A DNA stretch of 64,000 bases from a virus, in UHGV virus genome UHGV-0038496. One strand, given 5' to 3'. The notes below the pieces were generated by a model. The model made no database searches. It saw only the letters and a list, made by a program, of their open reading frames with translations, and was not told the origin of the DNA. The position numbers were made by a program, and so were the translations under genes. Shown here one piece after another: positions 19,270-40,886 of the stretch. Each line of letters begins with the position of its first letter. Position 1 is the first letter of the stretch.

Positions 19270-20244
19270 TGTAGAAGTTTCTTGAGTAAATACAACGATC
19301 CTGTAACAGGTGAAGAGAAATATCTCGGTCGTTTCAACTTAGGTGTGGTAAGCCTGAACCTACCTATGATTGCAGCTCGTTCCAAAGCTGAACAGGTAGA
19401 TTTCTTCAAACTGCTTGACGAGTATCTTGAACTGGCGTATGATGCTCATATGGTACGTGTGAACCGTTTGAAAGGCACAAAAGCTGGACAGAACCCGATC
19501 ATGTGGTGTGAAGGTGTTCTGGCTCGTCTTGATCCTAATGAGGAGATTGACAAACTGTTCTACGATGGCTATGCTTCTATAAGCATCGGCTATATTGGTG
19601 TTTATGAAACATGCCAGATCCTTGGCAGAGAAGGCGACAAAAACCTTGCTCTGGGTATCCTCCAGCACATGAAGGATAAATGTGTTGAGTTCAAAGAACG
19701 CAGCAGATTAGGTTTTAGCCTGTACGGCACACCAAGTGAAAATCTCTGCTATAAAGCGGCTACTTGCTTAGACAGGGCGTATCCTGGAGTTCTGGAGCAC
19801 GAAAGGGAATATCTGACTAATTCGTTTCATCAGCCAGTCTGGATCAAGAGCAGTCCTTTCGACAAGTGGGACTATGAAACCGGATTCGCAGCGATCTCCA
19901 ACGGAGGGTTCATAGGTTACGTTGAACTACCTAATTTACGTAACAATCTCGATGCTTTGGAAAAAATTGTTGATTACGGGTACACCCATTTGCCATATTT
20001 CGGCATCAACATGCCTGTTGACCAATGCTTCAAATGTGGCTTCCGTGGGGAATTTTCTGCCACTGCAAAAGGGTTCTGCTGCCCTGAGTGTGGTAACCAT
20101 GACGAAAGTAGCATCAGTGTGATCCGAAGAGTATCAGGCTATCTGTCTGCACCTAATGCTCGCCCATTCAATCGAGGGAAACAATCGGAGGTGTTAGAAA
20201 GGGTTAAACATGTCGGCAACGTAGATTGTTGTAGTATCTGTTAA
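19270..20244 (+). CDS. nrdD: NrdD, exon 3 (glycyl-radical domain)
   Basis: CRSFL ... GRFNLGVVSLNLP ... CFKCGF ... CPECG zinc ribbon and RVSGYL glycyl-radical motif; the three exons total 712 codons. Confidence 0.75.
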   Translation, partial: CRSFLSKYNDPVTGEEKYLGRFNLGVVSLNLPMIAARSKAEQVDFFKLLDEYLELAYDAHMVRVNRLKGTKAGQNPIMWCEGVLARLDPNEEIDKLFYDGYASISIGYIGVYETCQILGREGDKNLALGILQHMKDKCVEFKERSRLGFSLYGTPSENLCYKAATCLDRAYPGVLEHEREYLTNSFHQPVWIKSSPFDKWDYETGFAAISNGGFIGYVELPNLRNNLDALEKIVDYGYTHLPYFGINMPVDQCFKCGFRGEFSATAKGFCCPECGNHDESSISVIRRVSGYLSAPNARPFNRGKQSEVLERVKHVGNVDCCSIC

Positions 20245-23061: not shown

Positions 23062-23598
23062 ATGTCAAAAGCAAGAGAGATAGAGTTAAAATACGGTCAA
23101 GAAGGCTTCAATAAATTATTCCTTATAGACCAAAAGAACAATTTGGTGTGGAAAGTAAATAGAGGTGGTGGAGCAAGAATCGGGGATGTATCTTGCAACA
23201 GCAAAGACACTTCTGGTTACTTCATTGTTACAGTAGACGGTGTGCATCTGGCAGCTCATAGGGTTATTTGGATTATGAGGCACGGCGATATACCGGATAA
23301 CATGCAGATTAATCATATAGACCTGTGTAAAACCAATAATGCTGACTCTAACCATGAGCTTGTGGCACATGCTACAAATTGCAGGAGGAGAGGTCCCCAG
23401 AGGAAAAGCAAAACGGGTTATGGTGGTGTGCATTACCGTAAAGATCGGGATAAATGGAGAGTTTGCACAAGAAACGAGAAAGGTGAACGTGTAAACCTTG
23501 GGTGCTATGACGATCTCGACATGGCTAATACAGTTGTTACTTTGTACAAGATAACATTAGAAGCATTATTCGGAGAAGATTTTAAATATTTGTGTTGA
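23062..23598 (+). CDS. HNH homing endonuclease with AP2 domain (free-standing)
   Basis: HRVIWIMRHG ... INHIDLCKTNNADSNHEL; GVHYRKDRDKWRV AP2-like. Confidence 0.7.
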   Translation: MSKAREIELKYGQEGFNKLFLIDQKNNLVWKVNRGGGARIGDVSCNSKDTSGYFIVTVDGVHLAAHRVIWIMRHGDIPDNMQINHIDLCKTNNADSNHELVAHATNCRRRGPQRKSKTGYGGVHYRKDRDKWRVCTRNEKGERVNLGCYDDLDMANTVVTLYKITLEALFGEDFKYLC

Positions 23599-23967: not shown

Positions 23968-24021
23968 GGTGGTGATGCAGTAACGCTACAACAAGTCTAC
24001 CCTCACATAAGGATCGCTATC

Positions 24022-25035
24022 ATGAACAAATTTTATAACAATCGTCGTCAGCCTGAACGCAACGAGAAAGCAGTAGAACCGATGCAGAACAAAATGTTTG
24101 GTATGCCTGGTGGCATCATGGAAACATACAGCTATCCTGCTCCGGTTATGGATCACGTCATCTATATTGATGACTTAGAAGACCTTCAGGACCATCTATC
24201 TCGTTTACAACTGATCCGTATGCTGCAACCTGATGATTCTATTCGTATTATCATCAATAGCCCAGGGGGTTGCGTTAACATTGCTATGGCTTATCTCCAG
24301 GCAATGCGTGAATCTCAGGGCCATGTAGTTACTCATGCGGAAGGTATGGTTTGCTCTGCTGGTACTATTTTGTGGTTAGGTGCAAAAGAACGTACTTTGT
24401 CTCCGAACTGTGAGTTCATGTTCCACAACTATCAGGGCGGTACTTTCGGAGACGGTGCTAACATGCACGATCAGGTGACTTTCTTCAAACGTCATTTTGA
24501 TCGCTTGATTGATAAAATGTATACTGGGGTGTTAACTGAAGAAGAGATTGCTAAAATTAAAGGTGGTGGTCAGGTTTGGTTGAACGAAGAAGAGATCGCT
24601 GAACGTACTGGTGCAATCATCCTTGACGAAGAGAATATTGCACGTATTCAGGCTGGTCAGCAGGCTTTACCTTTCAACAAAGACCGTGGCGTGTTAGGTG
24701 AAGAAGGTTTACCGGAAGTTCATCAATGCAGCTCTATGGAAGAACTGGTAAAAGCTATCCATGAAGCGAAAGCAAAAAGCAATGAAGAAGATAAACCGAA
24801 AGATGTTTATCTGAATCTGCTGATGGACGATGGTCGTAACTTTAAACTGAACGTTGCAACGTTAAGTGAAGAAGAGCTGAAAGACTTCACTGTTGCAGAA
24901 CTTCGTGAGATTCTGGTTCAATTACACGGTGCTTTAACTGGTGAAGAAATTGAAGTTAAAGACAACAACCGTGGTCGTCTGGTTAAGAAAATCATCAAAG
25001 CTGGCAAAGATCTTCATGATAAATTGCTGGGCTGA
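24022..25035 (+). CDS. ClpP-like serine protease
   Basis: INSPGG, GMVCSAGTILWLGA, NCEFMFHN parallel ClpP active-site regions. Confidence 0.7.
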   Translation: MNKFYNNRRQPERNEKAVEPMQNKMFGMPGGIMETYSYPAPVMDHVIYIDDLEDLQDHLSRLQLIRMLQPDDSIRIIINSPGGCVNIAMAYLQAMRESQGHVVTHAEGMVCSAGTILWLGAKERTLSPNCEFMFHNYQGGTFGDGANMHDQVTFFKRHFDRLIDKMYTGVLTEEEIAKIKGGGQVWLNEEEIAERTGAIILDEENIARIQAGQQALPFNKDRGVLGEEGLPEVHQCSSMEELVKAIHEAKAKSNEEDKPKDVYLNLLMDDGRNFKLNVATLSEEELKDFTVAELREILVQLHGALTGEEIEVKDNNRGRLVKKIIKAGKDLHDKLLG

Positions 25036-25048
25036 TTAACATAACGCT

Positions 25049-25072
25049 AAGCCCTCTTCGGAGGGCTTTTTT
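25049..25072 (+). terminator. rho-independent terminator
   Basis: AGCCCTC-ttcg-GAGGGCT hairpin followed by TTTTTT. Confidence 0.75.
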
Positions 25073-25089
25073 GATCTGGAGATTTATTT

Positions 25090-25608
25090 ATGACCTGTGC
25101 TCGCAAGCCAGATAGTGAACGTAAACCCTATGATGAGTATGTCACCCCACAATATTTAGCGGATGCACTGTTTGAACTGATTGACTTCCCTGACCACTTC
25201 ACATTCATGGAGCCATGCAGAAACAGTGCAACAGGGCCGTTCTACAGTAATATGCCGTTAGGTTCAGCCTGGGGTGAGATTCAGGAAGGTGTAGACTACC
25301 TTGAAACAGATTATCCACATGTTAACTGCATTGTGACCAACCCGCCATTCTCTAAAGCCAAAGAGTTTATTGAGAAAGGCATGGACGATGCTGATGTGGT
25401 GATCATGTTACTCCGTCTTAACTTCCTTGAGTCAAAGACACGTTATGAGTGGTGGCAAACTCACCAACCCACAACGATAATCACCATTGCCAAGCGTCCA
25501 TCCTTCCAGGAGAACGGCAGAACCGATGGTCAGGCCTATGCCTTCTTTGTGTGGGATAAACAGGACCTGCTGAAACTTCCACCATTTATGTGGATAGGGC
25601 CAGAATAA
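25090..25608 (+). CDS. putative DNA N6-adenine methyltransferase-like protein
   Basis: IVTNPPFS (motif IV NPPF) and FMEPCRNSATGPF (motif I-like); unusually short at 172 aa. Confidence 0.45.
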   Translation: MTCARKPDSERKPYDEYVTPQYLADALFELIDFPDHFTFMEPCRNSATGPFYSNMPLGSAWGEIQEGVDYLETDYPHVNCIVTNPPFSKAKEFIEKGMDDADVVIMLLRLNFLESKTRYEWWQTHQPTTIITIAKRPSFQENGRTDGQAYAFFVWDKQDLLKLPPFMWIGPE

Positions 25609-25886
25609 TGAACGCCAGAGATACGCTACACAACCTAGCCAAAAAAGCTCCTATAACACTCCCAAAAGAGATGAACGAGCTTTATGATGCAGTTGTGGCT
25701 ACAGCCAAAGAAAAGGCGGTTGCAGGCTTCTTTGGCTGCTCATTTACGCTGAAAATACCTGAGCATCTGTCAGATTACATTCCTCACATGATAGCTGACC
25801 TAAGATCTGGCGGCATATCTGTAGATGTGATCGGGATGAATCCAGAAAAAGATGCCGTATTTGTGTTTTTGATGTTGACATGGTAA
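25608..25886 (+). CDS. hypothetical protein
   Basis: ATG overlapping upstream stop (TAATG). Confidence 0.4.
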   Translation: MNARDTLHNLAKKAPITLPKEMNELYDAVVATAKEKAVAGFFGCSFTLKIPEHLSDYIPHMIADLRSGGISVDVIGMNPEKDAVFVFLMLTW

Positions 25887-25923
25887 GAGAGGTGTGCTAC
25901 TATTCACAACATCGGAGGTGCTT

Positions 25924-26154
25924 ATGGCTTACGTTAAATTCAATATCTGGTTCCGCAAAAACAAACACTATACAGAGCTGTTCATCACACAAGGTGAAAA
26001 GCCTGAGGGGAATGGTTGGTGGTGCCGTGAGATGCTGCGTAAGGATGAGCACTTCAAAAGGCTGATTGGCATGATTCCGGCTGATGAAATTTATGATCTG
26101 GATCATGGCAGAGATGTGTTAGATTTAATAAAATACATGAACACTTGGAAATAA
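25924..26154 (+). CDS. hypothetical protein
   Basis: ATG at 25924 with GGAGGTG RBS. Confidence 0.4.
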   Translation: MAYVKFNIWFRKNKHYTELFITQGEKPEGNGWWCREMLRKDEHFKRLIGMIPADEIYDLDHGRDVLDLIKYMNTWK

Positions 26155-26166
26155 CAGGAGTCCACG

Positions 26167-26577
26167 ATGAAAATCGAAATCGTAACAGGTGAGAGCGGTA
26201 AGAAAGAAGTGAACGGTGAATTCGCCACAGTGGTGAAAGACACAATGTTCGAGAAAACTCATTTCGGTGAAAGTGTTGTTGGTGACACTGTTCAGGTGAT
26301 GGGTTTTGTACCTAAAGGTGCAACAATCCTGATCCTTGTAGCAGGTCAGGAACCTATGGAAGGTACTGTTGGCACAGACGGATACATCTGCATGACTGAA
26401 CACCCTCGTATGCAGATGGAAGATAGTGCAGGCAATCGTATCGGTTGCAAATTTGATGAAGTGGCTCTGATTTATGCAGAAGACCCTGAAAACTGCGAAA
26501 AAGAAGATATCATTGTTGGTAACGAACTCTTTGCTATTGAAGAGTTGTCAATGGTAGCTCCGAAAACAGTTCAGTAA
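26167..26577 (+). CDS. hypothetical protein
   Basis: ORF with CAGGAG RBS. Confidence 0.45.
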   Translation: MKIEIVTGESGKKEVNGEFATVVKDTMFEKTHFGESVVGDTVQVMGFVPKGATILILVAGQEPMEGTVGTDGYICMTEHPRMQMEDSAGNRIGCKFDEVALIYAEDPENCEKEDIIVGNELFAIEELSMVAPKTVQ

Positions 26578-26618
26578 GTTTCTTTAGCCTGCCAGGGATG
26601 GCCTTTCAGGAGGTTTAA

Positions 26619-26852
26619 ATGAAAGTTAAATTCCTTACCGACCACGGTTACCCATCCCTTTGTGATTGTGTTGGCAAAATTGTCCCCTGTAAACGCTTGA
26701 CAACCGATCCAACAATTGTTATAATCCGTGGTGTTGACTTACTGGAGGCAGGTGCAAAAGAGGGAAGAATATCTCCCGGATACACCTACTACATGTCCCT
26801 TCTGCCACTCCCAGAGCATGGCGGCTTGGGGTTCGAAATAGTTGAGGAGTGA
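26619..26852 (+). CDS. hypothetical protein
   Basis: ORF with AGGAGG RBS. Confidence 0.45.
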   Translation: MKVKFLTDHGYPSLCDCVGKIVPCKRLTTDPTIVIIRGVDLLEAGAKEGRISPGYTYYMSLLPLPEHGGLGFEIVEE

Positions 26853-26857
26853 CCACT

Positions 26858-27364
26858 ATGAGCAAGCTACTGTACACTTGGAAAGACTTTTACGTATCAC
26901 CGGATAAGATCCACACATATTATTACTATGCTTCAGGAAAACATACTGAAGCAGATGTAAAACGTCATCAAATCATGATGGCTAAAGCTAAATATGCTTA
27001 CTTTATCGCTGGTGTTTCTGAGGCAGTAGCTGCTTTTGTATCTTGCATGGATAAAGCGTTCGATGATAATACGCTTTACTTTGTTGAAGGTGAGGAAACA
27101 GGCCATCCAGAGCGCCGGGTAACACCATTCACTCTCGAAGGTCATGACCTGCCTGTTAAAATTGCTGTGAATTGGTATGATGGCTACAATGAATGTGGTC
27201 TGTATTCTTACAAAACTGTAGAAATAGAAGAGGAAGGACTCCTAACTAAAGCTGAGCGAGATTACATTGCAAGATTTATCTCTGAAGTGTTTGAAGAGTG
27301 TATGCGTGCTCATCACAGAAAAGCTCGTGATCGGATGATCCGCAATATGGCAGAATTTAAATAG
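26858..27364 (+). CDS. hypothetical protein
   Basis: ATG at 26858 with GAGGAG RBS. Confidence 0.45.
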   Translation: MSKLLYTWKDFYVSPDKIHTYYYYASGKHTEADVKRHQIMMAKAKYAYFIAGVSEAVAAFVSCMDKAFDDNTLYFVEGEETGHPERRVTPFTLEGHDLPVKIAVNWYDGYNECGLYSYKTVEIEEEGLLTKAERDYIARFISEVFEECMRAHHRKARDRMIRNMAEFK

Positions 27365-40613: not shown

Positions 40614-40886
40614 TTACTTGATGCGGCAAAATTCAAGCGTTTTTAATTGATAATCTTCTTCGGCTTGCATCACCACGCAATTGATCATGTGGTCGGCGTT
40701 ATCGAATCCACATTTCACAGCGAAATCATCGGCCCCGCCTTTGTGGTCATGTTCTGCGTTCATAGCCTCTACAAAATGGTACTCAAGATTATTCAAGTAA
40801 GGGCTAGATGTGCCGTCTTCTTTTTCAATAAGATCCCAGATAGCATTAAAACGTTTTTCAGTCGCCTTTTTAATCCACCCTTTCAT
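40614..40886 (-). CDS. hypothetical protein
   Basis: ORF in minus-strand array. Confidence 0.4.
   Translation of the reverse strand: MKGWIKKATEKRFNAIWDLIEKEDGTSSPYLNNLEYHFVEAMNAEHDHKGGADDFAVKCGFDNADHMINCVVMQAEEDYQLKTLEFCRIK

Follow-up and report, generated by a model that had tools for sequence, protein, structure and literature searches.

The 64,000-nucleotide stretch of the virus genome UHGV-0038496 analyzed here (the window, at its full length) belongs to a 140.7-kb metagenomic contig (ENA ERZ27287477). It contains, at positions 25,090 to 25,608, a gene for a small protein with the motifs of an S-adenosylmethionine (SAM)-dependent DNA methyltransferase. By position in the window, the gene and the elements recognized within it are:

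25090..25608, plus strand, stop codon included: gene for a predicted 172-residue SAM-dependent N6-adenine DNA methyltransferase, from the open reading frame (ORF) listing, with an ATG start
25132..25149, plus strand: motif X, D15-E-Y17-V-T19-P20 (D-x-Y-x-T-P), before the Rossmann core, aligned to 'VETPPEV' of M.TaqI
25210..25242, plus strand: motif I, E41-P42-CRNSAT-G49-P-F51, the SAM-binding loop, aligned to 'LEPACAHGPF' of M.TaqI
25276..25296, plus strand: the acidic residue E63 of motif II and D69 of motif III, putative contacts to the ribose and adenine of SAM
25324..25350, plus strand: strand beta-4 and catalytic motif IV, N79-C-I-V-T83-N84-P85-P86-F87, with N84, P85 and P86 invariant
25489..25536, plus strand: loop 134-149 (A-K-R136-P-S-F139-...-G-R-T-D-G-Q) between beta-6 and beta-7, with R136 invariant, a candidate DNA-contact element

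The product of the ORF is probably an active, SAM-dependent orphan (stand-alone) DNA N6-adenine methyltransferase with GATC as its most likely target, a reading to which a probability of about 0.78 is assigned. Its two components differ in strength: DNA adenine methyltransferase activity is highly likely, and GATC specificity, taken from an ortholog of 71% identity, is probable. The gene is carried by a myovirus of the rV5-like (Vequintavirinae-type) group with a genome of about 140 kb.

Sequence analysis bears out a preliminary description of the locus as a 172-residue ORF with NPPF and EPxxxxxxGxF motifs. The segment 'MEPCRNSATGPFY' contains E41-P42-x6-G49-x-F51, which corresponds to the EPxxxxxxGxF pattern (nt 25210-25242), and NPPF occupies residues 84 to 87 (nt 25339-25350). 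NPPF by itself is weak evidence, as a second copy lies in a 96-residue open frame at 40872; the methyltransferase call is nevertheless far beyond chance because the whole protein matches PHROG 799 and the family profile matches M.TaqI. Conservation was scored in an alignment of 40 homologs (26-95% identity). Twelve residues are invariant (P42, N84, P85, P86, A90, F93, L107, L108, R109, F112, R118 and R136), and D15, Y17, T19, P20, E41, G49, D69 and T83 are conserved in at least 90% of sequences, E41 and G49 each in at least 95%. Position 63 is E or D in all 40, position 69 is D in 36 and N in four, T83 is found in 39, and position 87 is always F or Y. Position 79 is variable (D in 24, E in 9, G in 4, N in 2 and T in 1).

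Profile comparison, which had been named beforehand as the check on the methyltransferase call, places the protein in PHROG 799 (phrog_799, 'DNA methyltransferase') over residues 1-168 (PHROGs search, E 2.9e-58, 199 bits), even though Pfam and NCBIfam matches stay below threshold. A single-sequence search against Protein Data Bank chains gives nothing meaningful (best E 0.26, to the unrelated Gp34), and a profile search is needed: the profile of the 40 homologs matches M.TaqI at E 3.3e-7, with motifs X, I, II, III and IV in order (M.TaqI residues 20-109), followed by type I HsdM subunits. The DNA enzymes M.TaqI, HsdM, PacII and DpnA are among the best sequence-profile matches of the family. 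Structurally, the AlphaFold2 model (predicted local distance difference test score, pLDDT, 88) is a seven-stranded, Rossmann-like class I methyltransferase fold. Fold, motif IV, and motif I with the acidic residues are thus all present as in class I SAM-dependent amino-methyltransferases (N6-adenine / N4-cytosine type). The earlier label 'methyltransferase-like' is accordingly upheld by profile matches, predicted fold, invariant motifs and a characterized ortholog.

The family is large. An exhaustive profile search recovers 22,164 clusters (50% identity) at E<=1e-3, of which 1,557 also pass E<=1e-30, and tblastn finds homologs in 540 phage records, many of them annotated as DNA N6-adenine methyltransferase. 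The best tblastn matches are rV5-like Vequintavirus phages (71% identity); Certrevirus, Seunavirus and phi92-like phages (43-55%) rank next, and various phages of Vibrio, Aeromonas, Bacillus, Staphylococcus and Campylobacter (27-38%) come after them. With more than 22,000 clusters at 50% identity, the family has neither a Pfam or NCBIfam model nor a solved structure. GenBank labels of near-identical orthologs are inconsistent, ranging over hypothetical protein, DNA methyltransferase, TrmN6 tRNA methylase and ClpP subunit. Many records of the MG0656xx series ('Campylobacter phage A138, C5, C14, D#' etc.) carry a gene 99.4% identical to the Escherichia coli rV5-type methyltransferase in genomes of rV5-like size, and these records may be mislabeled or contaminating coliphages.

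The functional assignment rests chiefly on Bas51, that is, Escherichia phage WalterGehring (MZ501111, BASEL supplement). Its product bas51_0176, a 'putative N6 adenine methyltransferase', aligns with the window protein over 171 residues at 71% identity and with 0 gaps. Judged from identity and gene neighborhood, the window protein is the ortholog of rV5 gp118 and of bas51_0176. Bas51 mutants that escape retrons carry D69G, D79G or T83P in the N6 adenine methyltransferase gene; D69G abolishes function of the enzyme and D79G abolishes retron triggering (PMC12548924). Native nanopore sequencing reveals a GATC N6-methyladenine (m6A) motif on Bas51 phage DNA, whereas the T83P phage retains hardly any GATC methylation (PMC12548924). 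Overexpression of the enzyme is toxic, and it triggers Retron-Asa1 and Retron-Squ1 (PMC12548924; PLoS Biol 2025). The characterized Bas51 gene is securely identified because the rV5-type sequence has D69, D79 and T83, an exact match to all three published mutation sites. The window protein represents a diverged member of a family of enzymes that has been annotated in hundreds of phage genomes and, recently, characterized in Bas51.

The two proteins share their length class (177 residues in Bas51 vs 172), conserved D69 and T83, and a two-residue 'NS' insertion in the motif I loop. This insertion is specific to the rV5 clade and, since the active Bas51 enzyme has it too, is compatible with activity. 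The two genes share neighbors as well: the gene upstream encodes a ClpP-like protease, the one downstream is a small ORF that overlaps the methyltransferase gene, and five genes further lies a 'glycosidase' homolog. The window protein differs in having N79 rather than D79, NPPF rather than NPPY, and a C-terminus 5 residues shorter. Identity to Bas51 reaches 80% over residues 1-20, 81% over 39-64, 79% over 101-133 and 87% over the best-conserved segment, 134-156, and is lowest (39-46%) in two surface helices. These values argue for retained specificity, in that the segments that are candidates for cofactor or DNA contact are 79-87% identical.

The GATC content of the window is consistent with this assignment. 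GATC occurs 297 times, at an observed/expected (O/E) ratio of 0.91 under a Markov model and 1.24 from base composition, and is thus not avoided; this fits GATC being modified but is not proof of it. CTAG has an O/E of 0.30, and eight 6-bp palindromes (AAGCTT, TCCGGA, CTGCAG, GCATGC, GGGCCC, GGTACC, ACCGGT and CACGTG) are absent from the window where 6-19 of each would be expected. As a separate observation, this avoidance of 6-bp palindromes suggests site avoidance as the main anti-restriction strategy of the phage.

Mechanistically, motif X (D15-x-Y-x-TP) would bind SAM together with E63, D69 and the motif I loop (E41-P42...G49-x-F51). The adenine to be modified would be flipped into the N84-P85-P86-F87 pocket and methylated at its N6 amino group, most likely, by orthology to Bas51, within GATC on replicating phage DNA. 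Short conserved elements must read the DNA sequence because there is no separate recognition domain; candidates are the N-terminal segment, the LLRLNFLES..R stretch and the K-R-P-S-F...G-R-T-D-G loop. The last of these, loop 134-149, is modeled at lower pLDDT (about 75) and may be the DNA-contact element that takes the place of a separate recognition domain.

Comparison with known methyltransferases defines the protein as a bare catalytic Rossmann core of the gamma (M.TaqI) type, without a separate target-recognition domain. It follows the gamma-class linear order X, I, II, III, IV to VIII and lacks the separate C-terminal recognition domain of that class. M.TaqI and other gamma-class enzymes (type I HsdM, MmeI, BseCI, CamA) are 380-1500 residues long and possess a separate recognition domain or subunit, whereas the window protein, only 15-19% identical to them, ends right after the seventh core strand. 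M.TaqI itself has 421 residues, of which 143 align with the window protein, which stops at residue 172. E. coli Dam and T4 Dam are about 260-280 residues long, and in them an inserted recognition domain separates motif I from motif IV. These alpha-class enzymes use the same cofactor, share the D/NPP[YF] catalytic motif and probably generate the same product, Gm6ATC; however, no sequence-profile match to the E. coli/T4 Dam family was found in the Pfam and family-profile searches, and the likeness in specificity is convergent rather than a sign of membership. The earlier remark that the protein is shorter than typical Dam enzymes therefore holds against E. coli Dam and T4 Dam but not within its own family, in which cluster lengths are mostly 160-200 residues among the matches listed (the best 150 of 22,164, plus another 97). 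Small size is the family norm and not an anomaly. A scan for fused domains in ten of the longer proteins of the family was informative for two, with a PF01555 DNA methylase in one and DUF3102 in the other.

The closest counterpart in architecture is orf13 of Haemophilus phage HP1 (HP1 Dam), a 173-residue protein that matches PF05869 at E 7e-75 and is counted among phage Dam-like (GATC) enzymes (PMC7556043, its ref. 32). HP1 Dam and the window protein are nearly equal in size, phage-borne and without a separate recognition domain, and share the element order D-x-W/Y-x-TP ... NPP[YF] ... MLL ... R-x-P-F. In hhalign, the present family aligns with HP1 Dam at 84.9% probability (E 6.5e-6, 119 columns). 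PF05869 proteins have 'LDTCA' in place of the EP...G.F glycine loop and are 17% identical to the window protein, so that the present family is likely a remote sister of PF05869 and not a member of it. Given the HP1 Dam precedent, methyltransferases of ~170 residues without a recognition domain are an established phage type. A literature search for a 'smallest' or 'minimal' DNA methyltransferase returned nothing.

Several observations weigh against a GATC-specific DNA adenine methyltransferase. In Pfam, PF05869 Dam reaches only 17.0 bits (E 0.0047) against a gathering threshold of 28.1, and in NCBIfam, TIGR01712 phage_N6A_met scores 12.9 bits against a curated cutoff of 97; when the 40 homologs are scanned individually, just 7 attain E 0.01 for PF05869. 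Because all Pfam and NCBIfam matches are sub-threshold, a check by Pfam only would have wrongly dismissed the methyltransferase reading. The protein (20.0 kDa) is acidic, with a calculated isoelectric point of 4.74, which is unexpected in a DNA-binding enzyme, and has no recognizable DNA-recognition domain. It differs from the characterized Bas51 enzyme in 29% of residues, and it has N at position 79, where D79G inactivates the Bas51 enzyme; this position, however, varies across the family, and N79 is a conservative replacement of D79. Finally, its fold neighbors include the rRNA/tRNA m6A methyltransferases METTL5, Erm, KsgA/DIMT1 and TrmN, and therefore the fold alone does not fix whether DNA or RNA adenine is the substrate.

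These observations feed three alternatives. The 29% divergence and the missing recognition domain could indicate an active DNA adenine methyltransferase with non-GATC or relaxed specificity. The difference from Bas51 at position 79 would fit such a change, the toxicity of the overexpressed Bas51 enzyme could reflect off-target activity, and relaxed adenine specificity is known in small phage enzymes such as p25 of the Serratia prophage OS31 (PMC7556043). This alternative is nevertheless unlikely, given the 79-87% identity to the Bas51 GATC enzyme in the segments likely to touch DNA, the gapless alignment between the two and the non-avoidance of GATC in the window. An RNA (rRNA/tRNA) N6-adenine or N2-guanine methyltransferase, or a HemK-like protein-glutamine methyltransferase, would share the NPPF/Y motif and be similarly small. 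Such substrates are highly improbable: the ortholog mutant loses DNA GATC methylation in vivo (PMC12548924), the best profile matches are DNA enzymes, a fusion with a PF01555 DNA methylase occurs in one family member, and no tRNA genes are found in the window.

The preliminary description had also considered an inactive methyltransferase-fold binding protein, and a catalytically dead protein that binds only DNA or SAM would account for N79, at the site of a loss-of-function mutation in Bas51, and for the two-residue insertion in the motif I glycine loop. It is hardly credible, as E41, P42, G49, E63, D69, T83, N84, P85, P86 and F87 are all kept, the same insertion occurs in the active Bas51 enzyme, and D, E, N, G and T are all tolerated at position 79 across the family. 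The near or full invariance of these catalytic residues in the alignment (N84, P85, P86 and P42 invariant; E41, G49, D69 and T83 nearly so) likewise disfavors an inactive protein. The active GATC methyltransferase thus remains the preferred reading. A bolder extension of it, doubtful at present, is that GATC recognition by a family of ~170-residue proteins lacking a recognition domain needs a reading mode unseen in solved methyltransferases, for example through core loops or an obligate dimer, or else that the N79 lineage has acquired a new or relaxed specificity.

What GATC methylation would do for the phage can be narrowed to a few candidate roles: protection from GATC-directed, m6A-sensitive nucleases, avoidance of nicking by MutH, and timing or control of replication or packaging. 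The MutH-avoidance and replication/packaging-timing roles are drawn from general Dam biology. GATC methylation could block only m6A-sensitive nucleases whose sites overlap GATC. An anti-restriction role is only conjectural in view of the BASEL study, in which rV5-like phages (Vequintavirinae) are 'exceptionally susceptible' to the restriction-modification (RM) systems tested (PMC8594841), namely EcoKI, EcoCFT_I, EcoCFT_II, EcoRI, EcoRV and EcoPI in its plating table. The earlier proposal of a minimal orphan methyltransferase protecting phage DNA is therefore retained in one half, action on phage DNA, which fits Bas51, and is conjectural in the other, protection, given this susceptibility. The one demonstrated consequence is a cost, as the Bas51 ortholog triggers retrons that carry GATC in their multicopy single-stranded DNA (PMC12548924). 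The gene is a likely determinant of sensitivity to retrons triggered by phage-encoded GATC methylation; the family being invisible to Pfam and NCBIfam, Pfam-based pipelines will call its members hypothetical. A literature search on nanopore methylation in Vequintavirus returned nothing, and papers on Druantia and Zorya that mention Vequintavirinae together with methyltransferases proved irrelevant.

Around the methyltransferase gene, the window has the following features:

24022..25035, plus strand: gene for a ClpP-like protease of 337 residues (phrog_5410 at E 1e-129)
25049..25074, plus strand: terminator-like hairpin, AAGCCCTC-TTCG-GAGGGCTT with a T run behind it, lying between the ClpP-like and methyltransferase genes
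25078-25081, plus strand: GGAG ribosome-binding site, 8 nt before the methyltransferase ATG, read from the sequence
25608..25886, plus strand: gene for a 92-residue protein, function unassigned (phrog_12158 at E 1.6e-34)

The hairpin ends ~16 nt upstream of the methyltransferase start codon and has a GATC in its T-tail (25073-25076). It is the one terminator-like site found, and shuffled sequences average 1.6, so that the count is not significant. Downstream, the methyltransferase stop codon overlaps the ATG of the gene for the 92-residue protein by 1 nt (TAATG; 25606-25610), which suggests translational coupling of the two. The equivalents of this downstream gene in rV5, Bas56 and Bas51 overlap the methyltransferase gene by 4 nt; no equivalent is present beside the methyltransferase homologs of phi92 and Vibrio phages.

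Genomic neighborhood analysis reveals synteny with Bas51 over a PhoH-like ATPase, a small ORF, the ClpP-like protease, the methyltransferase, four small ORFs and the 'glycosidase' homolog. The ClpP-like protease also lies upstream of the methyltransferase in rV5, Bas51, Bas56 and PVP-SE1. Megablast of 3 kb around the gene (24000-27000) against 50,697 phage records gives no match; the phage is therefore not a close relative of any record in that collection, and its lineage is distinct from Bas51.

Orthologs of the Seunavirus/Certrevirus type (PVP-SE1 gp152) have 226-227 residues with Arg/Asp-rich, low-complexity C-terminal tails, and the tail of PVP-SE1 gp152 overlaps the downstream gene; loss of a stop codon or an annotation artifact may explain these tails. 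The idea that the 92-residue product is a conserved partner, or the fused part of these longer proteins, was rejected, as comparison with the tails shows no homology (E 0.42) and its gene is missing beside the phi92 and Vibrio phage homologs.

Further along the plus strand, a 171-residue protein (26849-27364, phrog_13467, function unassigned) shares 28% identity (E 6e-19) with bas51_0171, the 'putative glycosidase' of Bas51. Escape of Bas51 from Retron-Asa1 is helped by a premature stop in bas51_0171 (PMC12548924). Upstream, a 178-residue HNH endonuclease (23062-23598, plus strand, phrog_99, E 8e-40) is encoded between the PhoH-like gene and a 105-residue phrog_5456 gene; it is probably a mobile homing-endonuclease insertion because Bas51, Bas56 and rV5_ev168 have no gene at that position. 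Still further upstream, a 350-residue ORF (19192-20244, plus strand) covers no more than the C-terminal half of the NrdD profile (positions 391-715 of 718). The Bas51 annotation joins nrdD, for the anaerobic ribonucleotide reductase, from two pieces and has a homing endonuclease next to it, and nrdD in the window (the 350-residue ORF and the ORFs at 17069-19104) may also be split by an intron or endonuclease.
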